NCBI GenBank assembly: GCA_003194425.1
Contig: PQXB01000001.1
Span: 430,444-462,443 of the forward strand
Length of the DNA stretch: 32,000 nt
Direction: 5' to 3'
Source: Candidatus Methanophagaceae archaeon
Lineage (GTDB): Archaea > Halobacteriota > Syntropharchaeia > Alkanophagales > Methanospirareceae
Below are positions 1 to 32,000 of the stretch, piece after piece. Below the pieces are notes generated by a model. It was not told the DNA's origin, searched no databases, and saw nothing but the letters and a program-made list of their open reading frames with translations. Every line of letters starts with the position of its first letter. The first letter of the stretch is position 1. The position numbers were made by a program, and so were the translations under genes.

Positions 1-732
1 GAGGTTTATTCCACGCCGTGCGAACTCGCCCAAAACCTCGTACAACGCTCCAGGTCGGTCTTTCAGGTAAATCAAGACAGAGGTCTTGTCCTTTCCTGTG
101 GGAGCTGTTTCGGTAGCCAAAGAAGAAGAGGAAAGCACGACGAACCTCGTGACGCTTTCTTTGTCCTGCACATTTTCCGCCACAATTTTCAGCCCGTACC
201 TCCGCGCCGCCTCTTCAGACGCCAACGCCGCCGTTCTTCCTTTCTCGTCTTTGGCTGCCAACTTCGCAGCGCTCGCAGTGCTGTCCACGGACTTTATTTT
301 CGCACCCCTCAACTGCTCCCTCAGGAACTGCTTGCACTGTGCCAACGCGTGCGGGTGCGAGACCACAGTTTTTATTTCTGCAAGATTTTTTGGTAAATTT
401 AGTAAAGTTCTTAAAGAAAGGTTTATTTTTATCGGCACCAGCACCTCACCTACAATCCGCAACTCCTCGCCCTCGCCTTCGGCAGTCTCGGCGTTCTCTC
501 TTTCACTCGAAAGCACATCTAAAGTCTCGCCCACCGACCCCTCCAACGAGTTCTCAATCGGGACAATTCCGCAATCCACCTCCCCCCTCAACACGCCCTC
601 GGAGACCCCAAAAATCGTTTCGTAATATTTTATCTCTTCGCCCTCTTCATTTTTTTCCGCTTTTGACAACAACCACAACTCCGCCGCCGCCTCCGAGAAT
701 GTCCCTGCAGGACCCAACACACCTATTTTCAT
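1..732 (-). CDS. pheA: prephenate dehydratase (partial; C-terminus runs off the window start)
   Basis: Open-ended, so absent from the ORF track. Reverse-strand translation from ATG (732..730) gives MKIGVLGPAGTFSEAAAELW. In the same frame are VVSHPHALAQCKQ (codon at 366) and an ACT-like segment TSVLIYLKDRPGALYEVLGEFARRGINL that reaches position 1. The + strand ORFs 86..625 and 339..746 are its shadows. Confidence 0.85.
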   Translation of the reverse strand, partial: MKIGVLGPAGTFSEAAAELWLLSKAEKNEEGEEIKYYETIFGVSEGVLRGEVDCGIVPIENSLEGSVGETLDVLSSERENAETAEGEGEELRIVGEVLVPIKINLSLRTLLNLPKNLAEIKTVVSHPHALAQCKQFLREQLRGAKIKSVDSTASAAKLAAKDEKGRTAALASEEAARRYGLKIVAENVQDKESVTRFVVLSSSSLATETAPTGKDKTSVLIYLKDRPGALYEVLGEFARRGINL

Positions 733-774
733 TTTTTTCTCTCTGACCTCAATTCACTTCCCCCTAACTTAAAC

Positions 775-3051
775 TCACCTCACAAACTTAACAACTCCCC
801 CCCCAGGAGCATAAAGCACCCCCTCCCGCTTCATAACTTCAATCATCTCCTCCGCCTTCTCGCGCTCCGTCCCTTCCTCCTCCGCAGCGTCAAGCACCGC
901 CTCAATCGGCACTTCTTCCCCGTACTCCTTCACCAACTCCTTTATTATTTCGCGAATTGACCTTGCACGGTCTCGGCGTGTCTTCGTCGTCCCGACATTC
1001 ACCCAGTCAGCGTCTAACTTACCTGTCTCGGGGTCGACAAAAACCCGCTTCAAGCAGTAGGTGACCAAATTAATCACGCGTTCGGCGTCCTCAGCCGTTA
1101 TTTTGTCGCTCAGCCGTGCCCTTGCCCTTGCCTCGCCCAGCCGAATCAGTGCCTCTAACTGCCGTGCCGTTACAGGGACAGGAGCGTCCTCGTCCTCGTA
1201 GCTCGGCTGCCGAAGCCCGATGTAAAAGTCCAGAAACTTCTGCTTCGCCTCCTCACTCATCACCGGAAAGACATTCCTCTTGCTCCACGCCACATATTTC
1301 CTTAACAACCCCCCAGCTATTTCAGGCTTCATTCTTTGCATCGCCACCTTGAAATGCTCCTCTCTCTCGGCTCTCTCAGCTCTCTCGGCTCTCTCAGCTC
1401 TCTCACTTCTTTCACCTCTCTCACCTTTCTCAGCTCTCTCACTTCTTTCACCTCTCTCACCTTTCTCAGCTCTCTCACTTCTTTCACCTCTCTCACCTTT
1501 CTCAGCTCTCTCAGCTCTTTCACCTCTTTCACCTCTCTCGCTGCCCGCTTCTCTTCTGCTCCCGCTGCTCCTGTCACCTGGCGTTGCGAGCAGTTCGCCA
1601 ACGTAGTGCGTCTCAATTATGTGCTTCGCAGTCCTCGTGTCAAGTTCTTCGTTCGGTCGGTCTAGCATCGTAAAAATGAGGTCGAACCGCGACAAAAGTG
1701 TGGGAGGCATATTTATCTGCTCTGAAATTGGGGTGTACCTGTCGAACCGCCCGCCTTTCGGGTTCGCCGCAGCCAGCAACGCACACCGCGAGTTTAACCT
1801 TGCCATCATTCCTGCCTTCGCGATGCTCACTGTTTGCTGCTCGATCGCCTCGTGAAGTGCGTCGCGGTCCCGCTTCTCCATCTTGTCGATTTCGTCGACG
1901 GCAGCAATGCCCTTGTCCGCGAGCACCAGCGCACCAGCCTCCAAAGTCCACCGCCCCTCACCGAACTCGTCTTTGACCGCGGCTGCGGTGAGTCCTGCTG
2001 AGGTGCTGCTCTTTCCGCCTGTGTAGAGACCCCGCGGTGCTAACTTCACGAGGTAGGTGAGAAGTTGTGACTTTGCCACTCCCGGGTCGCCGACGAGGAG
2101 CACGTGAATGTCGCCCCGCACTCGAGTTTCGTCAGGCAGTTCTTTAGGAATGCCCGCGAACAACTGCAGAACCATCGCCTCTTTTATCTCCTCGTAGCCG
2201 TAAATTGAAGGAGCGATGCTTTTAATGAGTTTTTCGTACAAGTCCGGCTGCTCCTTAAGCCCCAAAATCTCACGCTCGTCCGCCTCGGTAATCTCAATCT
2301 CCTCGAACTCTTCCTCCTTCACCTCCAACGAATTTCCGTCCAAATAAACCTCAAAGAACGGCATCTTCCCGTACTGCGTCTGCCGCTGGAAAGACCGCAG
2401 AATGCCTGTAACAGCAACGCGGTCGCCAGGTGCGACCACGCCAGAAATGTCGTCCTCCAAATTCACATCCAGCAGTTGCGGTAACTCGCCGCCTCGCAAC
2501 TCCTCAGGCGACTCCTGCAGCCTAATTTTCTGCGAATTCGCGAATTTACAGCGCTCCGTCAGCAGCAGGAAATGCTGCACTTTTCGGTCGCAGGACTCGC
2601 ACTCTGAAGGCTCTTTGAACTGCCTCCCTTTCTGCTCCACTAAAAACTGGTAGCCGCAAAAGGGGCACTCAAACAACGCCTCCGCCACCCGCGGTCGCAC
2701 CTCCGTCACCTTTGTCACCAGCCCCTCGAGGCTCGTCAGTCTGCCAATGTCGCTGCTCCGAACATCGCGAATCTTAAGTTTTCGCGGAAGTTTAATTATG
2801 CGGAGATTTGCCTCGTCGAGCGTAACGCCCGTAGGAATGTCGATTTCCTGCAAAGCCTGCGTTGCGGTGTCTAACGCTGCGTCCGGCTCTTCTAAAACCA
2901 TATTTGCAAGATCCGAGTCGTATTTGTCAATGTCAATGAATTTGACGAAGAGACTACGCTTTTCGGGGTAAGAATTCGAGAGTTCTACGAGCTCGTCCCA
3001 GTAGTACCGCTTCAGAAAGTCCTCCCATTTCTCTGCCAACGCGTCCTGCAT
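775..3051 (-). CDS. mcm: MCM replicative helicase carrying a low-complexity tandem-repeat insert
   Basis: 758 aa. It has a zinc-ribbon CPFCG...CESCD, Walker A GDPGVAKSQ, Walker B AAVDEIDKM and arginine finger SRFDLIF, followed by a C-terminal winged-helix-like tail. The insert (AEKGERGERSER x3 plus ERAE runs) lies between HIIETHY and LLRKYVAWSKRN. Confidence 0.95.
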   Translation of the reverse strand: MQDALAEKWEDFLKRYYWDELVELSNSYPEKRSLFVKFIDIDKYDSDLANMVLEEPDAALDTATQALQEIDIPTGVTLDEANLRIIKLPRKLKIRDVRSSDIGRLTSLEGLVTKVTEVRPRVAEALFECPFCGYQFLVEQKGRQFKEPSECESCDRKVQHFLLLTERCKFANSQKIRLQESPEELRGGELPQLLDVNLEDDISGVVAPGDRVAVTGILRSFQRQTQYGKMPFFEVYLDGNSLEVKEEEFEEIEITEADEREILGLKEQPDLYEKLIKSIAPSIYGYEEIKEAMVLQLFAGIPKELPDETRVRGDIHVLLVGDPGVAKSQLLTYLVKLAPRGLYTGGKSSTSAGLTAAAVKDEFGEGRWTLEAGALVLADKGIAAVDEIDKMEKRDRDALHEAIEQQTVSIAKAGMMARLNSRCALLAAANPKGGRFDRYTPISEQINMPPTLLSRFDLIFTMLDRPNEELDTRTAKHIIETHYVGELLATPGDRSSGSRREAGSERGERGERAERAEKGERGERSERAEKGERGERSERAEKGERGERSERAERAERAERAEREEHFKVAMQRMKPEIAGGLLRKYVAWSKRNVFPVMSEEAKQKFLDFYIGLRQPSYEDEDAPVPVTARQLEALIRLGEARARARLSDKITAEDAERVINLVTYCLKRVFVDPETGKLDADWVNVGTTKTRRDRARSIREIIKELVKEYGEEVPIEAVLDAAEEEGTEREKAEEMIEVMKREGVLYAPGGGVVKFVR
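1361..1540. repeat. in-frame tandem repeat inside mcm: 36-bp unit x3 perfect (1395..1502) flanked by degenerate 9/18-bp copies
   Basis: The unit cagctctctcacttctttcacctctctcacctttct occurs identically at 1395, 1431 and 1467. The tract is pyrimidine-rich on + and therefore purine-rich on the mcm sense strand. All frames are open across it, which explains track ORFs 1280..1606, 1329..1616 and 1336..1665. Confidence 0.95.
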
Positions 3052-3088
3052 CTTTTTTTAGTTCTTTAGAAGACTAAAAGAAGTGTAG

Positions 3089-3131
3089 AGAAAAAGTGCA
3101 TAAGAAAAAGTGCAAAAAAAGTGCAAAAAAA
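3089..3131. repeat. imperfect intergenic repeat (aaaaagtgca x3) directly upstream of the aroA start
   Basis: aaaaagtgca occurs at 3091 and 3105, and a variant aaaaaagtgca at 3115. The tract lies in the divergent mcm/aroA spacer and produces the spurious MHKKKCKKSAKK extension in the ORF track. Confidence 0.6.
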
Positions 3132-4523
3132 ATGAGAGTAAAGGTGCAGGGCGGGGTGAGGTTAAAAGGCGAGGTGAACGCACCGCCGTCCAAAAGCTAC
3201 ACGCACCGAGCGGTTGCAGTGGCGGCGCTGGCGGAGGGGAAGAGCGAAGTTCTTTTCCCGCTCGTCTCAGAGGACACGAAAGCCACATTTAACGCTGCAG
3301 AATGCTTGGGTGCTGTTGTTGAGTACGACGAGTCTGCGAGGCGGTTGAGAGTGAGAGGCGTCGCAGGGAAGCCAAGAGCACCCGAGGACGTGCTAAACGC
3401 CGAGAACTCGGGGACTACTCTGCGGTTCTTCACTGCAATTTCCGGGTTGTGCAGCGACCCAGCGACCGCTGTGGCTACGGTTCTGACTGGCGACGCGTCG
3501 TTGAGAACGCGACCAAACGCACCGCTGCTCAAGTCGCTGAACGAACTTGGTTCAGAGGCTTACAGCACGAAAGGGGACGGGACCGCGCCCTTAGTAGTAA
3601 AAGGCGGGCTGAAAGGCGGTGAAACGACCCTCGACGGCTCTGTCAGTTCGCAGTTCGTCTCTGCACTGCTTCTTGCGTGCCCGCTTGCAGAGAGGGACAC
3701 ACACATTCTCGCAAAGAACCTTGCCTCTGTGCCTTACACGAAAATGACGCTCGAGGTTTTGGAGCAGGCGGGGGTGGAGATTCCTTTCTCTCGCTCTCGC
3801 TCGTCAGGTTCCGGCGATTTTTCCTTTCAAGTCGCAGGAGGGCGAAAATATGAGTTGCGGAGGTTCGTGGTGCCTGGCGACTTCTCTTCCGCCTCTTACC
3901 TCCTGGCTGCTGCGGCAGTTACCGACTCTGAAGTGCGGGTGAGGAACTTGTTCCCGTCGGCGCAGGGCGACGCCAGAATCGTGGAGGTTTTGAAGGAAAT
4001 GGGAGTAGAGGTAAAATGGGAGAAGGAGCGGGGTGTTGTGAGTGTGCGAGGAAGGGTAGCGGAAAAGGGGAAATTAAAATTAAAAGGGCTGAAGGTGGAA
4101 CTGCGGGAGAACCCGGACTTGGTGCCGACGGTCGCGGTCCTGGGTGCTCTTGCCGAGGGCATGACTGAAATAACAGGGGTTGCTCACTTGCGGTACAAGG
4201 AGACGGACAGGTTGCGGCTTCTGACCGAGGAGTTGGGGAAAATGGGTGCGCGGGTGGAGGAGAGGCAGGACGGGCTGCTAGTTGCGGGGAAGGAAGGAGA
4301 GGCATTAAAACCCGCAAAAGTCAATTCGCACGGCGACCACAGGTTGGCGATGGCACTCTGCGTTGCAGGTCTTTCGGCTTCGGCTGGCAGTAGTGCGAGT
4401 GCGGGTGCGGAAGAGACGGTTGTAGAGGGCGCAGAATGTGCTAAAGTCTCTTACCCTTCGTTCTTTGAGGATTTGGTTAGTTTGGGGGTTAGTTTGGGTG
4501 CGGAGGTAAAGAGCGAGGAGTAG
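3132..4523 (+). CDS. aroA: 3-phosphoshikimate 1-carboxyvinyltransferase (EPSP synthase)
   Basis: ATG at 3132 gives MRVKVQGGVRLKGEVNAPPSKSYTHRAVAVAALAEG. LNAENSGTTLRF, VSSQFVSALLLA, ETDRL and HGDHRLAMA are typical EPSP synthase motifs. The GTG at 3096 used in the track lies inside an A-rich repeat and is unlikely to be the real start. Confidence 0.9.
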   Translation: MRVKVQGGVRLKGEVNAPPSKSYTHRAVAVAALAEGKSEVLFPLVSEDTKATFNAAECLGAVVEYDESARRLRVRGVAGKPRAPEDVLNAENSGTTLRFFTAISGLCSDPATAVATVLTGDASLRTRPNAPLLKSLNELGSEAYSTKGDGTAPLVVKGGLKGGETTLDGSVSSQFVSALLLACPLAERDTHILAKNLASVPYTKMTLEVLEQAGVEIPFSRSRSSGSGDFSFQVAGGRKYELRRFVVPGDFSSASYLLAAAAVTDSEVRVRNLFPSAQGDARIVEVLKEMGVEVKWEKERGVVSVRGRVAEKGKLKLKGLKVELRENPDLVPTVAVLGALAEGMTEITGVAHLRYKETDRLRLLTEELGKMGARVEERQDGLLVAGKEGEALKPAKVNSHGDHRLAMALCVAGLSASAGSSASAGAEETVVEGAECAKVSYPSFFEDLVSLGVSLGAEVKSEE

Positions 4524-4601
4524 TGAGGGGTAAAGAGCGAGGAGTAGTGAGGAGTAGAGTAGAAATAGCGAGGAGTAGAGTAGAAAAGGGGTAGAAAAGG
4601 G
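4505..4601. repeat. tandem duplication of the aroA 3-prime end including its stop codon (24 bp x2), followed by nested 21/17/11-bp repeats
   Basis: ggtaaagagcgaggagtagtgagg occurs at 4505..4528 and again at 4529..4552. The first copy holds the aroA TAG at 4521..4523. It is followed by agtagagtagaaatagcgagg, agtagagtagaaaaggg and gtagaaaaggg. The tract fills the aroA-helicase spacer. Confidence 0.9.
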
Positions 4602-4613
4602 GTGAAGCGAAAA

Positions 4614-8755: not shown

Positions 8756-8782
8756 TTCATTTATTTCTTCTCTCAAAAAAAT

Positions 8783-8828
8783 TTCTGACTTAAATGAAGT
8801 CAAACTTCTGACTTAAATGAAGTCAAAC
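8783..8828. promoter_or_regulatory. 23-bp unit x2, each containing the palindrome TGACTT-N5-AAGTCA; candidate operator in the divergent ABC/trpA spacer
   Basis: ttctgacttaaatgaagtcaaac occurs at 8783..8805 and identically at 8806..8828. The arms tgactt and aagtca are exact reverse complements. Confidence 0.45.
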
Positions 8829-8830
8829 AA

Positions 8831-8845
8831 TTTTAATATTAATAC
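8831..8845 (+). promoter_or_regulatory. candidate TATA box for trpA
   Basis: The AT-only stretch ttttaatattaatac lies about 40-55 nt upstream of the trpA ATG (8886). This is a positional argument only. Confidence 0.3.
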
Positions 8846-8855
8846 TGGAAAAGAT

Positions 8856-23172: not shown

Positions 23173-23206
23173 TTTTTAGTAAGTGTATTTTAGTAAATTT
23201 TAGTAA
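23173..23206. repeat. AT-rich repeat (attttagtaa x3) in the divergent rpl21e/mpgS promoter region, next to a TATA-like tttttatattaaatatt (23155..23171)
   Basis: ttttagtaa occurs at 23174, and attttagtaa at 23187 and 23197. The tract ends 8 nt before the mpgS ATG. Confidence 0.75.
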
Positions 23207-23214
23207 AAGAGAAA

Positions 23215-24645
23215 ATGCTGCTTGAAATGCCAAGGCACACGGAAATCTTCGGCTCGGTTAAGGTTCACGAGCTACAACGCGTGCTAAAATTAGACTCCGG
23301 CGGGTTTGAGAACCCACGTGCAAAGGACATTAGTTCTGAAGAGCTTAAAGGGGTTTTAAAGCGTTCTGCAATCGTGGTTCCGGTAAAGAACGAGAACCTG
23401 AACCTGCTGGACGGTGTTTTGCGGGCGATTCCGTTTGACTGCTCGATTATCGTGGTCTCGAACAGCGAGCGGGTCTCGCAGGACACCTACAAAATGGAGC
23501 GGGAGCTGGTAACTAACACCCACGACCTGACGCAGCAGGAGATTCTCATAATTCACCAGAAAGACCCCGGATTAGGCTCTGCTTTTCACGAAGTTGGTTA
23601 TGAGGAGATTCTTGAGAAGGAGAAGTTGGACGGAAAGGAGGCGGGAGAGGAGGCGGGAGAGGAGGCGGGAGAGGAGGCGGGAGAGGAGACAGGAAAGGAG
23701 AAGAAGAAATGGTTGGTCAGGGACGGGAAATCAGAGGGGATGATCATTGGGATGCTGCTTGCGAAGTCGCTGGGCAAGGATTTTATCGGGTTCGCAGACG
23801 CCGACAATTTTGTGCCTGGTGCGGTGCGGGAATATGTGATGGATTTTGCTGCTGGGTTCTGTATGTCTGAGTCGCCGTTCTCGATGGTGCGACTTCACTG
23901 GCGCTACAAGCCGAAGGTCGTGGAGGACAAACTCTACTTCAAGAAATGGGGACGGGTCAGCGAGACCACGAACAAGTACCTCAACCTCCTCATCTCTACC
24001 TGCACGGGCTTCGAGACCGGGGTCGTGATCACCGGGAACGCGGGCGAGCACGCACTGACGACGAGGCTCGCAGACTTGATGTGCTACTCTACCGGCTACA
24101 CAATCGAGCCCTACCACTTCGTTTTTCTCTTCGACAAGTTTGGACCAAGGGAGGCGGAGGAGTCTGCTGAGAAGGTGGGTGCTGAGAAGGTGGGTGCTGA
24201 GAAGGCGGGTACTGAGAAGGCGGGTACTGAGAAGGCGAGTTCAGAAGCTGCGAACGCGGGGATTGAGATCTTTCAGATCGAGACATTGAACCCGCACTTG
24301 CACGAAGAGAAGGGGGAGGCGCACATTAATGAAATGCTGACCGGCTCGCTGCGAATGGTCTACAACTGCAGGCTCTGTAACGATTATGTGAAGTCGAAGG
24401 TGCTTGCAGAGTTGGAGGGTTTGGAGGCGTTGCAGGAGGATTGGGAAGCCAGGTCAAGGTGGAAGGGCAAACCCAGCCACATAATGCCGCCTGTTGGAAG
24501 AATTGATGTGGGGAAATTTATGAAAGTGCTGAAGAGCAGTTCTGAGTCTCTACTAAGGTGCAAGCAAGGGGCTACAAAGTGTGAAGTGGTGGAGCGGGGG
24601 AGGGGAGAGAAGAAAAATGAAACGAGTTCTTTTTACAGACCTTGA
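23215..24645 (+). CDS. mpgS: mannosyl-3-phosphoglycerate synthase (GT55) with two repeat inserts and a C-terminal extension
   Basis: MLLEMPRHTEIFGSVKVHELQRV, VVPVKNENLNLLDGVL, IIHQKDPGLGSAF, GFADADNFVPGAVREYV, MVRLHWRYKPKV, YFKKWGRVSETTN, TGNAGEHALT and IEIFQIETLNPHLHEEKG are collinear with Pyrococcus MpgS as I recall it. The inserts are (EAGE)x4 and (AEKVG)x5. The last 28 or so residues extend past the usual ...SESLLR end and overlap mpgP by 29 nt. Confidence 0.92.
   Translation: MLLEMPRHTEIFGSVKVHELQRVLKLDSGGFENPRAKDISSEELKGVLKRSAIVVPVKNENLNLLDGVLRAIPFDCSIIVVSNSERVSQDTYKMERELVTNTHDLTQQEILIIHQKDPGLGSAFHEVGYEEILEKEKLDGKEAGEEAGEEAGEEAGEETGKEKKKWLVRDGKSEGMIIGMLLAKSLGKDFIGFADADNFVPGAVREYVMDFAAGFCMSESPFSMVRLHWRYKPKVVEDKLYFKKWGRVSETTNKYLNLLISTCTGFETGVVITGNAGEHALTTRLADLMCYSTGYTIEPYHFVFLFDKFGPREAEESAEKVGAEKVGAEKAGTEKAGTEKASSEAANAGIEIFQIETLNPHLHEEKGEAHINEMLTGSLRMVYNCRLCNDYVKSKVLAELEGLEALQEDWEARSRWKGKPSHIMPPVGRIDVGKFMKVLKSSSESLLRCKQGATKCEVVERGRGEKKNETSSFYRP
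23638..23697. repeat. in-frame 12-bp repeat x4 perfect plus one degenerate copy (gaggcgggagag) in mpgS
   Basis: Identical copies at 23638, 23650, 23662 and 23674, then gagacaggaaag. Confidence 0.95.
24166..24240. repeat. in-frame 15-bp repeat x5 (gctgagaaggtgggt and variants) in mpgS
   Basis: Copies at 24166, 24181, 24196, 24211 and 24226 show stepwise single-base drift (gtgggt to gcgggt, gctgag to actgag, gcgggt to gcgagt). Confidence 0.95.
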
Positions 24646-25456
24646 CGGGACGCTGCTCGACTTGTTTGACTACTCTTACGAGGCTGCGGTTCCGTGTTTG
24701 GAGGCGTTGAAGAAGCAGGGGGTGCCGGTCGTCTTCTGCACCGCGAAGACGCTCGCAGAGAACGAGTACTACCAGAGGGTGTTGGGAGTGAGCGACCCGT
24801 TCATCGTGGAGAACGGCGGTGCGGTCTTCGTTCCCGAGGGCTACTTCTCGTTCGGGTTTGAGGCGGACTGTAAAAAGCGGAGCGGGGAGAGGGGAAATTA
24901 CTGCGTTCTTGAACTCGGTGCTTCGTACGCGGAGCTGCGGCGTGCCTTAAAAGAAATCCGCGAGGAGACCGGGTTCAAAATAACGGGCTTCGGCGACCTG
25001 ACCGCGGAGGAGGTTGCGGCGGACGCGAACTTGAGCGTTGAAATGGCGAGGCTTGCGAAGGCGAAGCAGTACAACGAGAGTTTTATTTTTGACGAGCCCG
25101 AGGAGAAGGAGGCGGTTCTGTTTGCGAAAATCGCGGAGAAGGGGTTTGGTTTCACGCACGGCGGCAGGTACTACAACATTCACGGCAAGAAAGCGGACAA
25201 AGGGAGGGCAGTAAAAATACTCACAGACCTCTTCAAAAAGGAGTACGCAGCGGTCGGCGGCGGAGGAGTGCAGACAGTCGGCGTCGGGGACAGTCAGAAT
25301 GACATTTCAATGCTGAAAGCGGTGGAGCAGCCTGCGGTCGTGAGGAACAAGAAGGGCGGGTGGCTCGAAGTTTCGCTGCCAAACCTCTACAAAGCCGAGG
25401 GCGAGGGAACCGCGGGCTGGGTTGAGGTCGTGAAAAAGTTTTTTGAGGTTACATAA
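24617..25456 (+). CDS. mpgP: mannosyl-3-phosphoglycerate phosphatase (HAD-IIB)
   Basis: ATG 24617 gives MKRVLFTDLDGTLLD (HAD motif I). VVFCTAKT (motif II) and GVGDSQNDISML (motif IV) follow. It lies immediately downstream of mpgS. Confidence 0.85.
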   Translation: MKRVLFTDLDGTLLDLFDYSYEAAVPCLEALKKQGVPVVFCTAKTLAENEYYQRVLGVSDPFIVENGGAVFVPEGYFSFGFEADCKKRSGERGNYCVLELGASYAELRRALKEIREETGFKITGFGDLTAEEVAADANLSVEMARLAKAKQYNESFIFDEPEEKEAVLFAKIAEKGFGFTHGGRYYNIHGKKADKGRAVKILTDLFKKEYAAVGGGGVQTVGVGDSQNDISMLKAVEQPAVVRNKKGGWLEVSLPNLYKAEGEGTAGWVEVVKKFFEVT

Positions 25457-25466
25457 GGTTACATAA
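25447..25466. repeat. 10-bp tandem duplication (ggttacataa x2) containing the mpgP stop codon
   Basis: Copies at 25447..25456 and 25457..25466. The TAA at 25454..25456 is the mpgP stop, and the next gene's ATG is at 25468. Confidence 0.95.
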
Positions 25467-25467
25467 A

Positions 25468-26577
25468 ATGACGTGGAGAGAGGAGCTTAAAAAAGACATT
25501 AGCACTCTTGAGCAGCTCAAGGAGTTCGTAGACCTGACTCCAAAGGAGAAGAGGCAGTTACGAGAAATTACAGAAATCCACCCAATGCGAATTACTCGTT
25601 ATTATTTGTCGCTGATTGACTGGGACGACCCCGACGACCCGATTAGAAAGATGGCAGTTCCGTCAGAGGCGGAGTTGAACCTGTTGGGCAGCTACGACAC
25701 GAGCGGCGAACTGGAGAACACGAAGATGCCGGGGCTGCAGCACAAGTACAGCCAGACCGCCCTGATTTTAGCGACGAACCAATGCTCGACCTACTGCCGT
25801 CACTGCTTTAGGAAACGGCTGGTCGGTCTCTCGAGTGCAGAGATTTTGCAGCGGTTTAACGACGCGGTGAAATACATCGAAAAACACAGCGAGGTTAACA
25901 ACGTGCTCGTGAGCGGTGGCGACCCTTTTGTCCTGCCAACCGCGGTGCTTCGGGAATTTTTAGAGCAGCTCTCAGCAGTCCCGCATTTGAATTTTATAAG
26001 ATTTGGAACCCGCGTTCCCGTCACATTTCCAGAGCGGATTTTGGAGGACGAGGAGTTGTTGCGTCTGTTGGAGGAGAACTCGCGGGCGGAGCGAAGGATT
26101 TATGTGGTAACTCAATTCAACCACCCCCGAGAAATCACGGAGAAAGCCACTGCCGCCGTTGCTCGACTCATTAGCGCTGGCGTGATTCTGAACAACCAGA
26201 CCGTCTTGCTGAAGGGCGTGAACGACGACCCCGCGGTCTTGGCGGAATTGCAGAATAAACTCGTCAGCGTCGGTGTTAATCCTTATTACATTTTTCAATG
26301 CCGACCTGTAAAGCGTGTTAAGAACAATTTTCAAGTGCCGTTGCAGCGGGGCTACGAAATCGTTGAAGCGGCGAAGAAGCGGCTTAACGGGCACAGCAAA
26401 AGGTTTAAATATATTCTCTCGCATCAGAGCGGGAAAATTGAGATTGTGGGAGTTGAGGGAGAGTTTATTTATTTTAAGCACCACCAAGCGAAAGAGCCTG
26501 AAAATATAGGAAAATTGTTTAGACGGCGGTTGAACAAGACTGCTGGGTGGCTGGACGAGTTAGAAGAGGTTGAGTGA
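25468..26577 (+). CDS. KamA-family radical SAM aminomutase (lysine or glutamate 2,3-aminomutase-like)
   Basis: 369 aa. QCSTYCRHCFRKR (CxxxCxxC), VLVSGGDPF, FNHPREIT, NQTVLLKGVNDD and PYYIFQCRPV are present. It contains no repeat insert. Confidence 0.85.
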   Translation: MTWREELKKDISTLEQLKEFVDLTPKEKRQLREITEIHPMRITRYYLSLIDWDDPDDPIRKMAVPSEAELNLLGSYDTSGELENTKMPGLQHKYSQTALILATNQCSTYCRHCFRKRLVGLSSAEILQRFNDAVKYIEKHSEVNNVLVSGGDPFVLPTAVLREFLEQLSAVPHLNFIRFGTRVPVTFPERILEDEELLRLLEENSRAERRIYVVTQFNHPREITEKATAAVARLISAGVILNNQTVLLKGVNDDPAVLAELQNKLVSVGVNPYYIFQCRPVKRVKNNFQVPLQRGYEIVEAAKKRLNGHSKRFKYILSHQSGKIEIVGVEGEFIYFKHHQAKEPENIGKLFRRRLNKTAGWLDELEEVE

Positions 26578-26593
26578 GAGAGGGAAATCTAAA

Positions 26594-29500
26594 ATGAGAA
26601 ACGAAATGCGAGGGGGAGACAAAGAGGGAGGAGCGAAAGAGGGAGGAGCGAAAGAGGGAGGAGCGAAAGAGGGAGGGAAAGAAGGTGAAATGAGAGAAGA
26701 GGGCGAAGGAGGAGTAGAAGGAAAAGAGACGATTTACTTGGTTCCGCACACGCACTACGACGCGATTTGGGCGTTCACGAAGGAGGATTATTTTCACATA
26801 AATATGGTTTTGATTTTGCAGGAGGTGGTCGAGCTTGTAGAAAAGAAAGATTACAAGTTCCTGATTGAGCAGACATTTCTGCTGGAAGAGTTGGAGAGGC
26901 GGTACCCGGGGGTGTTTGCGAAGGTTGCGAAGGGGGTGAAGGAGGGAAAGATTGAGATTGCCGACGGCGAGTATTTGATGGCGGACACGATGCTGCCCGA
27001 GGGGGAGACGCTGATAAGGGAGATTTTTGAGGGGAAGAAATATGTAAAGGAGAAGTTTGGGAAGGAGGTGCCGGTAATGTGGCAGGCGGACAGCTTTGGT
27101 CTGAACGCGCAACTGCCGCAGATTTACAAGAAATCGGGCTACAAATATGTCGCTTTCCGGCGGGGGGTGACGAAGAGGAAACCGTCGGAGTTCTACTGGG
27201 CGGCTCTGGACGGGACGCGGATTTTGGCTCACTGGATGCCGCTGGGCTACCGGGCAGGGCTGGACTTGACGAAGTTGGAGGAGAGTTACGCGAAGTTGAA
27301 GGAGGTTGCGGCGACCTCGCAGATTTTAATGCCGTCTGGCAGTGGCGTTACGGTGCCGCAGCCAGAGACCGCAGAGGTCGTGCGGGCGTGGAACGAGGCG
27401 GCGAAGGGAGCAGGACTGGGAGCAGGACTGGGAGCAGGACTGGGAGCAGGAGCAGGGAAAGGAGCAGTGCAGGGAGCGGGACAGGGAGGAGGAGCAGGAC
27501 AGGGAGCAGGGAAAGGAGCAGTGCAGGTTGGGGGGGAGAGAGCGGAAATGAAAGTAGCGACGCCGAGCGAGTTCTTTGAAGCGCTGGAGAGGGAGGTGGC
27601 GGAGCGGAAGATTGAGTTGGAGGTCAGGCGGGGGGAAATGTATTCGGGGCGGTTTTCAGAGGTCTTTCCGAGTTGCTGCTCGAGCAGGATGTGGATAAAA
27701 CAGGAGCTCAGCGAGTACGAGTGTTGGCTGCTCTGCTGCGAGCGGTGGAGCACCGTAAACTACCTCCTGAACAACCCCTACGTCGAGGAAGAGGCGAGGA
27801 ACTGCTGGCGTAAGATTTTGTACATCGCTTTTCACGATGTCGCACCTGGAACCGGAATGGACGAGGGCTACGAGGAGGTGCGGCAGTTCCGTAACTTCTT
27901 AAACACCGAAATGACCACTCGCTGCCACCGCACGCAGAATCAGGTGATTGAAAGCGAGTCAGAGGACGGAGAGAGAAAGGGGGACGGAGAGAGAAAGGGG
28001 GACGGAGAGAGAAAGGGGGAGAAGGGAGTGAAGAAGGAGGACAAGGAAAAGGAACTCCGAAAGCAATTCTTGATGACGCACGGCTACGGTGACATAATGG
28101 TTTTTAACTCGCTCTCGTGCGAAATGCGGAACTGGGTGGAGATGGATTTGAACTTTGACCGCGGGCAGGTGGTCGCGATTGGCGGGCTAAAGAGTGGTGA
28201 AGAGGAAATCGGGGTGGAGGTGCTAAAATTTGCGAGGTACGCGGACGACTCGTTGCGGTCTGCGAGGATTGGGTTCGTGCCTACGGTTCCTGCGATGGGC
28301 TACAAGATTTATAAAATCCTTGAGCGAAAGCCTAAGCAGTCTCGTTTTGATCCTAATTTTCTGATGACTCGCGGGAACACGATTGAGAACCGTTTCTTTG
28401 GCGTGGAGGTGGACCCTGCCACGGGGTTGGTTGATATTTTTTTCGGGCGTGGGCAGAAGGGAGAGACGGAGCAGGAGCGGATTTGCACTGCGAACGAACT
28501 CGTGCTTGAGGAAGAGACCGGCGACCTTTACTACCACCGAGAGACCTTGCGCGGTCCGCTGAAGAGTGAGACTGGGGAAGGGGTGAAGTACGGCTCGTTC
28601 AGGGTGGAGGATTTCAAGATTGAGGAGAGCCCGCTGCGGCATGTTGTAAGTATTGAGACAGATTATTTTTCACTGCGTTGGCCGTACAGGCTGACCGAGA
28701 AGAAAGAGCCGCTTATTTGGCGGCACAAATTCTTGAAGTGCTCGAAGAAAATTATCGTTTACAAGGACCTTCCGAGAATTGATTTCGTTACAGAAGTAGA
28801 GGACAAGCACCCGCGGGCACGGCTCAGGGTCAAGTTCAGCACGGACATAAAATCGCTGACCTACACTTGCGGAGCGCAGTTTGGCGTTGTTTCACGACCG
28901 ACCGACCAGTGGGGCTTTGAGCCAAAAGAGGCGTGGGTGGAGAAGCCGTGCGGGACATTTCCGTCGCTGAAATGGCTTGATTTCTCTGACGGTCGGAAGG
29001 GCTTGACTGTGCTTCACAGGGGGCTGCCGGAGAACGAGGTGCGAGACGGGAATGTTTATTTGACGCTGCTACGAAGCGTTTCAATGCTCTCCTCGGACGG
29101 CAAGACCGGTCCTGCAATTCCAGTTCCAGACGCGCAGGAGTTGCGGAAGTACGTCTTTAGGTACTCGATTTACCCGCACAGGGGAGATTGGCGTGAAGCG
29201 GCGTCCTACAAGCACGCTCTCGAGTTCAACTACCATTTGGACGCAGTGCAGCTGCGTGAAGAGAAGAAACTTCCTCTAGAACGGTCTTTTCTGAAAATAG
29301 AACCGGAGAGCGTCGTTCTCTCAGCGCTGAAGAAAGCGGAGGCGGGAGACGAGGTGGTGCTGAGATTTTACGAGACGAAAGGCGAGGAGACGGACGCTGA
29401 AATAACTCTCTTCAAGGCGCCAAAATCGGTCAAGGTGGTGAATATGCTCGAAGAAGAGGTGGCAGGGAAAGGCGTGGCAGGGAAAGGCGTGGCAGGGAAA

Positions 29501-29638
29501 GGCGTGGCAGGGAAAGGCGTGGCAGGGAAGGGGAGAGAGGAGGAGGAGTGGATGAAAAAGGAGTTGAGAGTAGGGGGTAGAAAGATAGAATTGACGGTGA
29601 AGCCTTTTGAGATTGTTACTTTGAAGATGAAGTTTTGA
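26594..29638 (+). CDS. glycoside hydrolase family 38 alpha-mannosidase-like enzyme carrying four separate repeat arrays
   Basis: The GH38 catalytic N-domain has LVPHTHYDAIW and MWQADSFGLNAQLP, with central and C-terminal beta domains. Start candidates are ATG 26594 (includes the GGAKE repeats) or ATG 26690 (MREEGEGGVEGKETIYLVPHTHYD). The track start TTG 26570 overlaps the upstream stop. Confidence 0.85.
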   Translation: MRNEMRGGDKEGGAKEGGAKEGGAKEGGKEGEMREEGEGGVEGKETIYLVPHTHYDAIWAFTKEDYFHINMVLILQEVVELVEKKDYKFLIEQTFLLEELERRYPGVFAKVAKGVKEGKIEIADGEYLMADTMLPEGETLIREIFEGKKYVKEKFGKEVPVMWQADSFGLNAQLPQIYKKSGYKYVAFRRGVTKRKPSEFYWAALDGTRILAHWMPLGYRAGLDLTKLEESYAKLKEVAATSQILMPSGSGVTVPQPETAEVVRAWNEAAKGAGLGAGLGAGLGAGAGKGAVQGAGQGGGAGQGAGKGAVQVGGERAEMKVATPSEFFEALEREVAERKIELEVRRGEMYSGRFSEVFPSCCSSRMWIKQELSEYECWLLCCERWSTVNYLLNNPYVEEEARNCWRKILYIAFHDVAPGTGMDEGYEEVRQFRNFLNTEMTTRCHRTQNQVIESESEDGERKGDGERKGDGERKGEKGVKKEDKEKELRKQFLMTHGYGDIMVFNSLSCEMRNWVEMDLNFDRGQVVAIGGLKSGEEEIGVEVLKFARYADDSLRSARIGFVPTVPAMGYKIYKILERKPKQSRFDPNFLMTRGNTIENRFFGVEVDPATGLVDIFFGRGQKGETEQERICTANELVLEEETGDLYYHRETLRGPLKSETGEGVKYGSFRVEDFKIEESPLRHVVSIETDYFSLRWPYRLTEKKEPLIWRHKFLKCSKKIIVYKDLPRIDFVTEVEDKHPRARLRVKFSTDIKSLTYTCGAQFGVVSRPTDQWGFEPKEAWVEKPCGTFPSLKWLDFSDGRKGLTVLHRGLPENEVRDGNVYLTLLRSVSMLSSDGKTGPAIPVPDAQELRKYVFRYSIYPHRGDWREAASYKHALEFNYHLDAVQLREEKKLPLERSFLKIEPESVVLSALKKAEAGDEVVLRFYETKGEETDAEITLFKAPKSVKVVNMLEEEVAGKGVAGKGVAGKGVAGKGVAGKGREEEEWMKKELRVGGRKIELTVKPFEIVTLKMKF
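26626..26670. repeat. 15-bp repeat x3 perfect (gggaggagcgaaaga; GGAKE) at the GH38 5-prime end
   Basis: Identical copies at 26626, 26641 and 26656. The tract is either an N-terminal extension or 5-prime UTR, depending on the start used. Confidence 0.95.
27407..27530. repeat. in-frame repeats in GH38: 12 bp x3 perfect (ggagcaggactg; GAGL), then a 24-nt block repeated at a 54-bp spacing
   Basis: The 12-mers sit at 27407, 27419 and 27431. gagcagggaaaggagcagtgcagg occurs at 27450 and again at 27504. Confidence 0.9.
27964..28017. repeat. in-frame 18-bp repeat x3 perfect (ggacggagagagaaaggg; DGERKG) in GH38
   Basis: Identical copies at 27964, 27982 and 28000. Confidence 0.95.
29459..29533. repeat. 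in-frame 15-bp repeat x4 perfect plus one degenerate copy (gtggcagggaaaggc; VAGKG) in GH38
   Basis: Identical copies at 29459, 29474, 29489 and 29504, with a degenerate copy at 29519. Confidence 0.95.
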
Positions 29639-29657: not shown

Positions 29658-29819
29658 ATGGTAAGCGGAAATGTAGCGTTTGCGTCCCACAAAGGAGGAA
29701 CAGGCAAGACAACCTCCTGCATAAACATCTCCGGATTCCTTGCACTCTGGGATAAAAAAAAGGAGAAGAAAGGAGAGAAAGAGGAGAAGGAGGGGGAGAA
29801 AGACGAGAAGGAGGGGTAG
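29658..29819 (+). pseudogene. remnant of a ParA/MinD-family P-loop ATPase gene (only the first 30 or so codons, then low-complexity sequence and a stop)
   Basis: Manual translation gives [53 protein letters not shown], then a stop at 29817..29819. KGGTGKTT is the deviant Walker A of ParA/MinD ATPases. Everything after about residue 31 is purine-repeat sequence. It is below the track size cutoff. Confidence 0.6.
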
Positions 29820-29847
29820 AGAGGAGTAGAGAGAAAGATGGGGAGGA
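29813..29847. repeat. first copy of a 35-bp dispersed direct repeat bracketing the first chemoreceptor gene
   Basis: ggggtagagaggagtagagagaaagatggggagga at 29813..29847 is identical to 31510..31544. Each copy ends with ATGGGGAGGA, i.e. a start codon plus two codons and the first two bases of a third. Confidence 0.95.
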
Positions 29848-29866: not shown

Positions 29867-31516
29867 TTGAGAGGCTTGTTAGAAGCTTTGAACGCTTTTA
29901 GGAACGGCGACTTGACAACAAGACTGCCAAAAGAGCGGTACGATTTATACGGCGAGCTGGCAGACGCGTACAACAAAATGGCAGAGACAGTGGGCGGTGT
30001 TACGACAGAAATGAGCCGAGTGGCAAAGGTCGCAGGCACAGAGGGAAAACTGACCGAGCGGGCGTTAGTTCCCGGTGTCGCAGGCAGCTGGAAAGAGATT
30101 GTCGAGTCCTTAAACGGCTTAATTTACACCGTCGCAGAATTCACGCTCGAGATGAGGAGAATCCTCGACAACATCTCCAAGGGCAACTTGACCGAGAAAT
30201 TTGCAATGCCCGTAGCAGGCGACTTCAGAATAATGTCTGACACTGTCAATAAAACAGTCGACAGCTTCAATCTAATCGGCAGCGAAGTGTCACGGGTGAC
30301 GAGGGAAGTAGGAGTAGAAGGGAAGCTCGGTGCAAAAGGGGAAGTTCCGGGTGTCGCGGGTGCCTGGAAGGAGCTGACAAATAATGTGAACACTCTCTCT
30401 GCAAACCTAAAGATTCAGGTTGGAGACATTGCAAAGGTAGCCACCGCGTTAGCCAACGGCGACCTTACACAGAAAATCACTGCAGAAGCAAAAGGCGAGA
30501 TCCTGCAGCTCAAGGAGACGATCAACAGTATGGTCGACAGCCTCAACGTCCTCGTTGCTCGGGTTCGGGATTCCGCTACTACTGTCGCCTCCTCAGCTCA
30601 GGGCATTGCAGCCTCGGGCACCGAAATGAGCACCTCCACGATGCAGGTAGCAGCCTCAGTGCAGCAAATCGCAAAGGGCGCGCAGGATCAGGCAGAGAAG
30701 ACAGACGCGGTCTCCAAGTCCGCAGAGCAGATTTCAAAGGCTGCTACCGAGGTCGCCGAGCGGGCAGACGAAGTGAACAAGGCGGCATTTGCTGCTGATA
30801 AAAGTGCCCAGGCAGGTCTTAAAACCGTGGACGAGGTCGTTAAAAGTATGCAGGGAATTTCAGAGGTGGCAGAGGCGACCTCGACAACAGTCGAGACGAT
30901 GACGCAGCGTGGGGAGGAGATCGCAAAAATACTGGATGTTATCACAGACATCGCGTCGCAGACGAACCTGCTTGCACTGAACGCCGCGATTGAGGCTGCG
31001 AGGGCTGGCGAGGCTGGCAGGGGCTTCGCAGTAGTCGCAGAAGAAATCCGCAAACTCGCCGAGAACAGCAGAATCTCTGCAGGCGAGATCGCGGAACTTG
31101 TGAAGTCAATCCAGAAGGAGACCGTCTCTGCTTCAAAGGCTGCGAAGACAATGACAGAGAGCGTGACCGCGGGCAGGGAAGCGACGAACAAGTCCTCTGC
31201 GGCTCTCGATAACATCTTGTTTACAATGAAGCAGACCGCAAAGACAGCGAAAGCGATTTCAGAAGCAGCAGCACAACAGAGAACGAGCATTGAGTCGGTC
31301 GTGAAGCGAGTGGAAGAGGTCTCAACGATTGCAGAGGAGACGGCGGCGGGTTCTGAAGAATCTTCTGCCTCTGCACACGAACTGACCTCTGCGATGGGGG
31401 AGCTCACCGCCTCGGGTCAGGAGCTGGTAAAAATCGCCGCAGAACTCCTCGACGCCGTGGCAATCTTCAAACTCGCCGGTAAAACTGTGTGTAGAAGAGA
31501 GGGTAGAGAGGGGTAG
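29867..31516 (+). CDS. methyl-accepting chemotaxis protein, poly-HAMP, lacking any transmembrane or sensor N-terminus (start uncertain)
   Basis: The signalling domain has [41 protein letters not shown]. Upstream are several HAMP-like modules (NGDLTTRL..., [57 protein letters not shown]). The only start ahead of the first HAMP is TTG 29867, and the first in-frame ATG is codon 38. Confidence 0.8.
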
Positions 31517-31544
31517 AGAGGAGTAGAGAGAAAGATGGGGAGGA
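31501..31544. repeat. 10-bp repeat x3 (gggtagagag, gggtagagag, gagtagagag) overlapping the second copy of the 35-bp repeat
   Basis: It contains the stop of the first chemoreceptor gene (TAG 31514..31516) and the start of the second (ATG 31535). Confidence 0.9.
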
Positions 31545-32000
31545 GAGTAAGAAAAGGAGAACAGAAAGAGAAATACAAAATCGTACTAATCGCAGCCCTT
31601 TTAGGCGTTTGCTGCTTTCTTACTTATTATTTTTATGTGGTTCTCTCAACAGGCGTTGTCTTTACCCACTTCTTTTACATTCCAATCATTTTAGCAGCGC
31701 TGTGGTGGGGAAGAAAAGGAACAGTTGTAGCGATTTTTTTAGCCTTCTTGATAATTTTCAGTCACTTTTACTGCCACTTCTTTCTCAAAACAGGCGTGGA
31801 GACAATTTATGATTTGATTCGTGCTCCGATGTTTGTAATTATTTCTTTTATATTGGGTGTTTTAAGTGAGCGGATTGCGAAGATGGTTGAAAGCCTCAAC
31901 GCAATTGGCAGCGAAGTAGCAAGGGTAGCAAGAGAAGTAGGAGAAGAAGGAAATCTTGGCGTGCAGGGAGAGGTGCCGGGTGTCGAGGGAATTTGGAAGG
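31535..32000 (+). CDS. membrane-anchored chemoreceptor/HAMP-repeat transducer (partial; continues past the window end)
   Basis: Open-ended, so absent from the ORF track. Manual translation gives MGRRVRKGEQKEKYKIVLIAALLGVCCFLTYYFYVVLSTGVVFTHFFYIPIILAALWWGRKGTVVAIFLAFLIIFSHFYCHFF...MFVIISFILGVLSERIAKMVESLNAIGSEVARVAREVGEEGNLGVQGEVPGVEGIWK. It has 3-4 predicted TM helices, followed by the same GSEVxRVxREVGxEGxLG...VPGVxGxWK module seen in the upstream gene. Confidence 0.7.
   Translation, partial: MGRRVRKGEQKEKYKIVLIAALLGVCCFLTYYFYVVLSTGVVFTHFFYIPIILAALWWGRKGTVVAIFLAFLIIFSHFYCHFFLKTGVETIYDLIRAPMFVIISFILGVLSERIAKMVESLNAIGSEVARVAREVGEEGNLGVQGEVPGVEGIWK

Follow-up and report, generated by a model that had tools for sequence, protein, structure and literature searches.

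Tandem repeats that change in length between near-identical strains, by multiples of three inside genes and by any number of bases elsewhere, are found in the core chromosome of a thermophilic archaeon of the anaerobic methanotrophic group ANME-1. They were analysed in a stretch of 32,000 nucleotides (contig PQXB01000001.1 of assembly GCA_003194425.1, positions 430,444 to 462,443; hereafter, the window), which belongs to the ex4572-4 lineage of ANME-1 (Methanophagales), a Guaymas Basin thermophile. Gain and loss of repeats is ongoing in this lineage, blind to the reading frame and filtered by selection. Thus, all 28 length alleles detected inside genes are multiples of three (binomial p=4e-14 against an expectation of 1/3), whereas only 6 of the 24 alleles in spacers and C-terminal tails are, which corresponds to the chance level (Fisher p=3e-9 for the comparison with genic alleles). 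An earlier note on this DNA, made from its letters alone, had proposed that selection filters an otherwise indiscriminate repeat-generating process, and the alleles bear this out. The explanation that we consider probable is that this core chromosome has a greatly raised rate of formation, expansion and contraction of short tandem duplications.

Tandem Repeats Finder (TRF) returned 82 rows for the window, which were merged into 50, 32 and 23 arrays with scores of at least 30, 40 and 50, respectively. In 50 dinucleotide-preserving shuffles carried out in 500-bp blocks, a null that keeps local composition, the mean number of arrays with a score of at least 50 was 0.32 and the maximum was 2, compared with the 23 observed. 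The observation made by eye in the earlier note is confirmed, and every array named in it was recovered by TRF in the same place and with the same unit. The spacer units include the lengths that it had recorded (8, 10, 11, 13 and 23 bp) and others, of 14, 16, 17 and 21 bp, that it had not listed. Four arrays (3081, 8779, 12811 and 18019) were reassigned to positions upstream of the true gene starts, the starts of the longest open reading frames (ORFs) being over-long, a correction supported by gene calls in related contigs, which are shorter or vary with array length. With starts so corrected, and for scores of at least 40, the unit is divisible by three in 15 of 17 genic arrays versus 3 of 15 spacer arrays (Fisher p=2e-4). 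The rule that all genic units are divisible by three holds, then, for these 15 and fails for two weak arrays (5178 and 13046), which have alternative periods of 6/12 bp.

On the sense strand, genic arrays are 67-100% purine (A 36%, G 50%, C 9%, T 4.5%), compared with 60% in genes overall, and 84% of the residues that they encode are G, E, A, K or R, C, F, W, Y, M, H, I and P being absent; these figures agree with the purine richness and the biased peptide composition noticed before. Spacer arrays are more varied in composition. A partial unit ends 24 of the 28 perfect arrays. Nearly every locus has its own unit, as had been claimed, the departures being the 10-bp arrays at 29811 and 31508, which share an exact 37-nt direct repeat, and the unit at 4539-4558, which is nearly the same. 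A dispersed mobile element or an external template was discarded, since units are specific to their loci and similar to the ancestral sequence there, ancestral residues at the insertion sites included, which upholds the proposal of local duplication. A CRISPR array was also rejected, all arrays being head-to-tail without spacers between units, and a search of the window with Rfam for structured RNA or CRISPR in the spacer arrays gave only the four tRNAs.

Length alleles, lineage and insertion sites

The strain comparison was based on 19 contigs, 99.0-99.5% identical to the window and obtained from independent assemblies (MEGAHIT, SPAdes, JGI, Logan and metagenome-assembled genomes, MAGs, from NCBI). 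This set includes two JGI metagenome contigs, contigs with MCM length variants (ENA, Logan, JGI and NCBI) and 10 of 18 contigs with the exact MoaB protein. Relative to the window, 90 distinct indels were found among them, 74 of which lie in tandem-repeat (TR) arrays that, with 12-bp margins, cover 10.9% of the sequence (binomial p=2e-55). An anchor-based length table shows that 22 of 28 arrays are polymorphic in length, through both gains and losses, and that in 105 of 200 array-by-strain comparisons the length is not that of the window, at a divergence of 0.5-1% of aligned bases. Most of these changes amount to whole repeat units between essentially identical flanks. The suggestion that the arrays have changed recently, or are still changing, is in agreement with this variation.

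Searches with MPGS and MCM place the window within ANME-1. The MPGS protein of the window is 56-69% identical to those of ANME-1 MAGs, and its MCM protein is 66-83% identical to ANME-1 orthologs, the next-best matches outside the species cluster reaching 76-83%. NJEM01000006.1, from the MAG ANME-1 ex4572-4, is 99.5% identical to the window; this MAG, of 1.02 Mb and 71% completeness, comes from an orange microbial mat of the Guaymas Basin at 50-80 C (Chadwick et al., PMC9012536). The GC content of the species is 54-55%, compared with 43-44% in the ANME-1 relatives closest by MCM (76-83% amino acid identity), so that a large compositional shift exists within ANME-1, with similar sense-strand purine loading.

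Arrays with a score of at least 50 appear at 7.2 per 10 kb in the window, at 6.8-7.3 in the strain contigs and at 9.9 in an unlinked ex4572_4 locus (L078), while the relatives closest by MCM have 0-0.45, and 32 other ANME-1 loci around mpgS have an average of 1.1. The excess is specific to this lineage. The 10 kb that adjoin the window on its left side have a similar array frequency. The unlinked locus, found via CoaBC, spans 16.2 kb with genes for PolD DP2, L6, HisD, L18e, L13, S9, RpoN, RpoK and CoaBC, and its units are divisible by three in 12 of 12 genic arrays versus 4 of 8 spacer arrays. In this locus, L13 contains a 15-bp array (8678-8707), the L13/S9 overlap an 18-bp array (8795-8829), and further in-frame arrays are found in HisD, a Cas4-like nuclease and a Mut7-C protein.

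No arrays were found in two ANME-1 loci of similar GC (L024 and L027), and the TR-poor relatives closest by MCM do not differ in sense-strand purine loading. Composition was thus rejected as the sole cause. In six other ANME-1 loci (L013, L015, L016, L019, L028 and L031), a repeat with a 15-bp period directly follows the mpgS stop, and ANME-1 in general may have a low-level tendency to spacer repeats.

The inserts encoded by the arrays are specific to this lineage. In MCM, an array at 1362-1539 (minus strand, TRF score 273), with a 36-bp higher-order unit composed of diverged 9-bp units, encodes (G/A/S)ER(A/G)E(K/R) repeats at residues 505-564, in the linker between the AAA+ alpha/beta and lid domains. 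Strain alleles of -45, -81, -90 and -135 bp exist, and the proteins of the cluster (713, 728, 731, 737, 743 and 746 aa; 758 aa in the window) are 99-100% identical outside the number of (G/A/S)ER tripeptides. ANME-1 orthologs, those containing inteins aside, have 698-703 aa, compared with 713-758 aa in the species, and read ...EEAER-EHF where the species has the repeats; no insert was found among more than 100 best MCM matches outside the species cluster. About 90 aa of the window protein correspond to about 6 aa in the linker of 8x7t_D. An AlphaFold2 model of this MCM, built from a shallow and too-similar alignment of 44 sequences, had a mean pLDDT of 43 and a pTM of 0.29. Several other ANME-1 MCM genes encode proteins of about 1180-1260 aa with intein/homing-endonuclease domains (PF14890, PF14528); the MCM of the window has no intein.

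MPGS contains two arrays, both on the plus strand. The first (23632-23700, score 110) has a 12-bp unit encoding EAGE repeats at residues 140-162, with alleles of -12 and -24 bp, and the second (24165-24237, score 118) has a 15-bp unit encoding AEK(V/A)G(A/T) repeats with stepwise substitutions at residues 317-341, with alleles of +15 and +30 bp. Both are absent from all other ANME-1 orthologs, which have 407-413 aa versus 468-482 aa in the species, and in P. horikoshii MPGS (2zu7_A) the two insertion points are at residues 137/139 and 290/295. In the alignment, the repeat units resemble the ancestral residues at the site, as occurs in MCM. An exact look-up of the MPGS protein of the window gave no record, its repeat allele being unique among the assemblies.

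The ribosomal protein eL15 (rpl15e) has a 12/18/30-bp array at 16619-16688 (minus strand, score 79), encoding an A/G/T/R-rich segment at residues 21-44, whose place in solved archaeal eL15 chains is between residues 21 and 22; alleles of +12, +30 and +36 bp lead to proteins of 202-214 aa across strains. In PsmA, a 12/6-bp array at 21990-22044 (plus strand, TRF) encodes residues 248-266 of the C-terminal tail, with alleles of -12 and -30 bp and protein lengths of 264-277 aa. The alignment to A. fulgidus PsmA stops at residue 244, the array being a C-terminal extension beyond this point. Neither the eL15 nor the PsmA insert has a counterpart in the solved structures compared. According to Pfam coordinates, the remaining arrays are terminal, coincide with domain boundaries or fall in domain matches that are over-long. 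The proposal that lineage-specific inserts interrupt proteins that are normally constant in length is consistent with all these comparisons, and the inserts would form flexible or disordered loops on protein surfaces.

Proposed mechanism and alternative explanations

It is proposed that duplications would begin locally, through out-of-register realignment between microhomologies of a few bases in low-complexity, purine-rich sequence. Once two copies were present, whole units would be gained or lost by slipped-strand mispairing in replication or repair, and the array would act as a variable number tandem repeat (VNTR). Duplication and slippage would both be blind to the reading frame. Selection would then purge the variants that break proteins, and those surviving inside genes would be multiples of three, free of stop codons, and would add flexible residues, small or charged, to protein ends, to loops or to the linkers between domains. 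Purine-only DNA would pass this filter automatically, since the eight codons made of purines alone stand for K, R, E or G and give no stop in any sense frame, which would account for the bias of genic arrays towards purines as well as for that of their peptides. The peptide bias would thus come largely from purine-only codons, and selection for a particular peptide need not be invoked. Units of every length would persist in spacers and at the very 3' ends of genes, leading to shifted stops, tails and spacer lengths and, in the window strain, to the fusion of two genes.

Partial units at array ends would be expected if duplications arise between short direct matches and, together with the whole-unit steps, they suggest slippage as the molecular step. 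Hairpin-driven slippage was rejected for most arrays, whose minimum free energy is about 0 kcal/mol. The high rate itself might have its source in a heritable peculiarity of the replisome or of repair. Slippage is plausible in that archaeal PolB and PolD slip on repeats in vitro (PMC4134008).

Several points weigh against this explanation. The chromosome-wide scope rests on about 58 kb of the species genome, covered in two unlinked regions. Arrays longer than the assembly k-mer or read length (about 140 bp) are not reliably sized in short-read contigs, and the copy numbers of the mcm array (178 bp) and of the array in the tail of a Dph6-like gene (160 bp) may be mis-assembled. The placement of the inserts in loops and their disorder are predicted from alignment gaps relative to solved structures, and their neutrality is assumed. 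The molecular step is hypothetical, and the hairpin-assisted slippage studied in vitro is not applicable to most arrays, which have no hairpin potential.

Among the alternatives, the one that survives best, although it is improbable as the primary cause, is that the charged flexible peptides, or the regulatory repeats in spacers, are kept by selection as useful, e.g., for solubility or protection at 50-80 C, for new interactions or for tunable expression, with no mutation pressure required. The inserts are indeed kept at the same sites in all strains and tolerated in essential proteins, their composition is strongly biased to G/E/A/K/R, and some spacer units look functional, such as the 23-bp unit with a palindrome described below or the arrays placed between stop and start codons; moreover, functions have been suggested for comparable amino acid tandem repeats (aaTRs) in the work on Borgs, the extrachromosomal elements of Methanoperedens (PMC9879509). 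However, the composition follows from purine-only codons without any selection on peptides, and spacers are equally rich in arrays with unconstrained unit lengths, which argues for a raised input rate. In addition, length varies freely between 99.5%-identical strains, which fits better with weak constraint than with an optimised function, and other thermophilic or high-GC ANME-1 do not have arrays, judging from loci L024 and L027 and from ANME-1 papers. Adaptive value is compatible with a raised duplication rate as a secondary layer.

It is slightly less probable, and in our view unlikely, that selection has merely been relaxed, with an ordinary ANME-1 mutational input and a small effective population size in which drift fixes slightly harmful insertions. 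The small genome, the specialised, syntrophic, hydrothermal niche, and the background tendency reflected in the 1.1 arrays per 10 kb of other ANME-1 loci and in the recurrent 15-bp array after mpgS would fit this idea. Nevertheless, spacer arrays, which are little selected anywhere, are also far commoner here than in the nearest relatives, and the difference observed in half of the array-by-strain comparisons at such low divergence implies a high rate per locus. Purifying selection is, besides, effective, since no frame-breaking alleles are present inside genes.

That short-read assemblers created or mis-sized the arrays is very improbable. N-runs in the NCBI MAG scaffolds (L057, L068 and L071) at about 3101, 4499 and 8351 are located exactly at arrays, a further gap at about 9743 not being in one; three partial MCM proteins of the species cluster (209, 272 and 520 aa) may reflect contigs cut short, and the two arrays beyond k=141 (mcm and the Dph6-like tail) are those of uncertain size. 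Against an artefact, none of the 19 contigs, which represent many samples and no fewer than five pipelines, is without the arrays, and most of these span 20-110 bp, below read length. Particular alleles are found again in assemblies produced by different programs (-23 bp in six, -12 bp in five and +8 bp in five), relatives assembled from similar data do not have arrays, and errors would ignore the reading frame, which the genic changes respect and the spacer changes do not. The repeats in turn fragment short-read assemblies and may contribute to the low completeness of the MAGs of this lineage.

Equally remote is the idea that the DNA comes from a Borg-like giant extrachromosomal element of ANME-1 with captured host-like genes: pervasive TRs with genic units divisible by three are a diagnostic Borg feature, Borgs may carry translation genes and even rRNA operons, most window genes are on one strand, and the GC content is about 10 points off that of the nearest ANME-1 relatives, but the two loci hold the single-copy core genes to be expected in a cell, for MCM, PolD DP2, PsmA, SecD, aIF2-beta, RpoN/K, eight ribosomal proteins, four tRNAs and amino acid and cofactor biosynthesis, within a MAG 71% complete on archaeal markers at only 1.02 Mb; no near-identical ANME-1 "host" was found in searches, the next-best MCM being 76-83% identical; Borg GC lies below that of the host, and here it is above that of the relatives; and neither terminal inverted repeats nor marker genes of Borgs came to light, although they were not searched for systematically. 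Because of its core genes, its tRNAs and its membership in a marker-rich MAG, the window is core chromosome and not a Borg-like element.

Comparison with known repeat systems

The closest parallel to the arrays is that of the Borgs, whose TRs and aaTRs are near-perfect, have locus-unique units and lie in ORFs in about half of the cases; their genic units are all divisible by three, as is only a minority of the intergenic ones (Schoelmerich et al. 2023, PMC9879509). The same holds here, with units almost all locus-unique, about half of the arrays in ORFs, and the same contrast between genic and intergenic units. Also shared are the partial units flanking arrays, the purine (A) enrichment, the disorder-type residues, and the absence of Cys, bulky residues and stop codons. 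The number of units varies within populations in Borgs and among closely related strain contigs here, and close relatives do not have the arrays. The Borg parallel drawn in the earlier note is thus matched in every feature of sequence, and departs from it in two of context, the Borg carrier and the enrichment in extracellular or membrane proteins.

The carrier here is the cellular chromosome of another ANME order (ANME-1), and not a giant linear element with long terminal inverted repeats and low GC, according to gene content, tRNAs, ANME-1 taxonomy and 54% GC. The hosts of the arrays (MCM, eL15, PsmA, MoaA, MPGS, ABC ATPase domains, GH38, L13, HisD and a Cas4-like protein) are all cytoplasmic, conserved housekeeping proteins, whereas those of Borgs are mainly extracellular or membrane proteins. 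The bias is towards G+A (G 50%) at 54% GC, in contrast to the A-rich repeats of Borgs at about 33% GC. When TR density is measured as in Borgs (perfect arrays of at least 50 nt and at least 3 units), the window has 6 regions that occupy 1.31% of its length (188 per Mb), and other strain loci range from 0 to 1.8%. The average in Borgs is 0.62% (460 regions in ten genomes), with at most 0.01% in Methanoperedens (PMC9879509). By this measure, the repeat density matches or exceeds that of Borgs.

The VNTRs and contingency loci of bacteria (Haemophilus, Neisseria and the interspersed repetitive units, MIRU, of Mycobacterium) also change between strains by whole units through slipped-strand mispairing, and those located close to promoters or to the ends of genes can affect expression or the gene product. 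Whole-unit alleles between near-identical flanks, as in VNTRs, were found here in, e.g., mpgS, GH38, the ABC ATPase tail and spacers. In contrast, bacterial contingency loci are few, are located in surface or virulence genes and work as frame-shift on/off switches, while the arrays described here occur about every 1.5 kb and in core genes. Phase-variable contingency loci were rejected, given that no genic allele breaks the frame and that frame changes are confined to spacers and to C-terminal tails (Dph6-like, aroA and ABC-F).

Eukaryotic minisatellites are similar in their 6-36 bp units, their higher-order units (comparable to the 36 bp built from 9 bp in mcm), their interspersed variant repeats and their high allelic diversity. 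They differ in being non-coding and driven largely by meiotic recombination, whereas the present arrays belong to an asexual organism, are short (2-7 units) and lie in coding sequence in more than half of the cases. In Plasmodium falciparum and Dictyostelium, lineage-specific, low-complexity, length-polymorphic hydrophilic inserts occupy loops and linkers of housekeeping proteins, and are attributed to slippage and composition and regarded as largely neutral. These organisms are eukaryotes with an extreme AT bias, and their inserts are mostly homopolymeric Asn, Lys or Gln tracts. The present case concerns an archaeal thermophile with discrete, G+A-rich, multi-codon units (6-36 bp), and with equally many arrays in spacers.

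In searches of the full-text literature no published report of TR-rich ANME-1 chromosomes was found, and the ANME-1 genome papers checked are silent on such repeats. The hypervariable Borg-like tandem repeats are here borne by a chromosome, in core genes of a thermophilic ANME-1, the pattern having been described previously only for Borgs. Recent Borg work still uses TRs to tell Borg from host DNA; a cellular chromosome with an equal or higher density implies that pervasive, frame-respecting TRs are not specific to such elements. It also provides a second, independent system in which to seek their cause, for instance by comparing TR-rich with TR-poor ANME-1 in their replisome and repair genes.

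A bolder proposal, which we put forward only tentatively and would not yet favour, is that a heritable trait of one ANME-1 lineage, most plausibly an altered component of the replisome or of repair, makes the whole chromosome a hypermutable minisatellite field that resizes disordered segments in essential machines (ribosome, MCM, proteasome and radical-SAM enzymes), and that the same mechanism is behind Borg repeats. If this were true, pervasive TRs would be a property of certain archaeal replication systems and not a Borg signature.

The arrays constitute, moreover, a natural insertion scan, in which dozens of essential, length-constant proteins tolerate variable inserts of 5-60 residues at 50-80 C, and the comparison of genic alleles with those of spacers and tails offers an unusually clean population-level view of selection acting on frame-blind mutation. 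From a practical point of view, the repeats break MAG scaffolds, shift predicted protein lengths and start and stop calls between strains, and can create apparent gene fusions; they could also act as high-resolution strain markers for Guaymas ANME-1.

Individual arrays and their gene neighbourhood

The Pfam annotation of the window comprises MCM, EPSP synthase (AroA), an SF1 helicase, a MacB-type permease and ATPase, TrpA, MoaA and SecD, followed by an Asn-synthase/diphthamide-synthase-like protein (Dph6-like), MoaB, a DNA methylase, eL15, LSm and aIF2-beta, and then a SAM methyltransferase, an ABC-F-type ATPase, a McrC-like protein, PsmA, SBDS, MPGS, MPGP, a radical-SAM protein, GH38 and MCP. 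L37e, L21e, the 5' part of pheA (minus strand) and four tRNA genes are also present. These identities agree with those proposed before, save that the ORF at 86-625 is only the shadow of the minus-strand pheA.

The MacB-type ABC ATPase has a 12-bp array encoding DGRL repeats in its C-terminal tail (7980-8002, minus strand, TRF; alleles +12, +24 and +36 bp). A 12/24-bp array of the ABC ATPase (8302-8409, minus strand, score 97) encodes residues 132-168 (K/G/E/R/S) inside ABC_tran, the match to which extends over 179 aa versus the 137 positions of the Pfam profile; a -24 bp allele is found in three strains. In moaA, an 18/9-bp array (10046-10119, plus strand, score 79; alleles +18 and +54 bp) encodes residues 46-70 directly after the CxxxCxxC radical-SAM motif, and a 9-bp array with a 100% match in TRF (10724-10745, plus strand) encodes EGV repeats in the C-terminal domain, being 18 bp shorter in two strains. 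The SAM methyltransferase contains 7.5 copies of a 6-bp unit (ACAAAC; TN/TK repeats) at 18511-18555 (plus strand, TRF), with alleles of -12, -6 and +6 bp.

The GH38 gene contains four arrays, all on the plus strand. At its N-terminus, a 15-bp array (26610-26676, score 113, residues 14-36) precedes the GH38N domain, which starts at residue 54, and in strain contig L034 a +12 bp allele adjoins it. A compound 12/18/24/54-bp array (27403-27527, residues 278-320) lies between the N-terminal and middle domains, according to TRF and Pfam limits, with clustered unit-shift substitutions relative to L034. A perfect 18-bp array follows (27964-28033, residues 465-488, TRF 100% match), which is one unit (18 bp) shorter in L034. 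Finally, a perfect 15-bp array (29459-29529, score 142, residues 964-987; -3 bp in L034) is located in the C-terminal beta-sandwich, whose Pfam match extends over 104 aa versus a profile of 72 positions. This gene closes a segment (23215-29638) in which mpgS and mpgP, for mannosylglycerate synthesis, are followed by a radical-SAM gene and by GH38, which is alpha-mannosidase-like; such clusters for compatible solutes are typical of thermophiles, and this one includes a possible hydrolase.

The Dph6-like gene (plus strand) has purine-only arrays detected by TRF in its N-terminal part, of 12 bp at 12905-12927 and of 6/16 bp at 13046-13086, the latter with alleles of +27 and +54 bp. Its C-terminal tail consists of an 18-bp array encoding KEEEKG repeats (14437-14596, plus strand, score 199; the 18-bp repeats named in the earlier note are at 14479-14596) that ends at the moaB ATG (14597). 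In the window this array is in frame with moaB, giving rise to a 767-aa ORF (12833-15136) that had been described as a fusion. The tail alleles, of -13, -14, -28, -32 and -50 bp, are all indivisible by three, and in eight other strains the gene stops 23 or 67 nt inside moaB, in other frames. The fusion is thus not a stable gene, being one of three frame outcomes of a variable tail; it is a strain-specific read-through, a by-product of repeat length with no conserved gene architecture, or it could conceivably be an assembly error in the 160-bp array.

Length changes free of frame also occur at the 3' ends of aroA and ABC-F. Arrays of 12, 24, 21, 10 and 11 bp cover the 3' end of aroA and its spacer with the helicase (4475-4603, plus strand, TRF), where alleles of -24, -12, -11, -4 and -1 bp were found, and where three MAG scaffolds are interrupted by N-gaps; the first 24-bp unit contains the aroA stop codon (4521-4523), so that this duplication does carry its own stop, as the earlier note had said. 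A 13-bp array (20340-20412, plus strand, score 97; alleles +7, +8 and +13 bp) runs from the stop codon of the ABC-F-like ATPase to the start of the mcrC-like gene. The divergent mcm/aroA spacer contains an 11/14-bp array (3081-3132, no strand assigned, TRF; allele -1 bp) upstream of the real aroA start, since gene calls in strains give AroA 463-467 aa, and the longest ORF gives it 475 aa; at this array, an N-gap is present in one MAG.

In the divergent spacer between the ABC ATPase and trpA (8779-8883, no strand assigned, TRF), a 23-bp array, with the palindrome GACTTAAATGAAGTC in its unit, is accompanied by a 10-bp array. The 23-bp unit (8779-8828) has hairpin potential (z = -2.9), is duplicated in the window and single-copy (-23 bp) in six strains, and its duplication lies between AAAC/AAAT microhomologies; it may be a duplicated operator site. 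The secD/Dph6-like spacer (12715-12845, plus strand, TRF) is filled by three arrays of 11, 13 and 17 bp, with alleles of +19, +18, +12, +1 and -10 bp. From the rpl15e stop to the start of the DNA methylase there is a perfect 8-bp array (16115-16137, minus strand, TRF; alleles +8 and +16 bp). The 7-bp and 16/8-bp G-rich arrays at 18007-18093 (plus strand, score 101; alleles -48, -32, -8 and +9 bp) are placed upstream of the true start of the SAM methyltransferase because its called length varies between 199 and 223 aa. A perfect 10-bp duplication upstream of mpgS (23187-23207, plus strand, TRF) is constant in length in the nine strains compared.

The 10-bp units over the stop codons of mpgP and MCP were both found, the former as a perfect duplication (25446-25466, plus strand, TRF) and the latter as an array (31496-31530, plus strand, TRF), part of which is in the right copy of the 37-nt direct repeat. 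The two copies of this repeat (29811-29847 and 31508-31544) bracket a 1.66-kb segment with the first MCP gene, and L034 does not have the segment, fusing 29847 directly to 31508; the direct repeats mediate a presence/absence polymorphism of the size of a gene. Downstream of 31536 lies a gene for a paralogous MCP, 88% identical over the aligned part. The 21/9/10-bp purine array at 29757-29833 (plus strand, TRF), previously taken for a spacer array, is instead the K/E-rich tail of a 53-aa ORF (29658-29819), which explains its 21/9-bp period. This ORF starts with a deviant Walker-A motif of ParA/MinD type (KGGTGKTT) and ends, after the repeat tail, in a stop; from its sequence, it looks like a truncated ParA/MinD remnant.

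The LSm protein (16884-17243) has a low-complexity C-terminal extension of 40 residues (R/G/E/K), which is not a tandem repeat, and the final codons of its gene run into the beginning of that for L37e (17237-17407).

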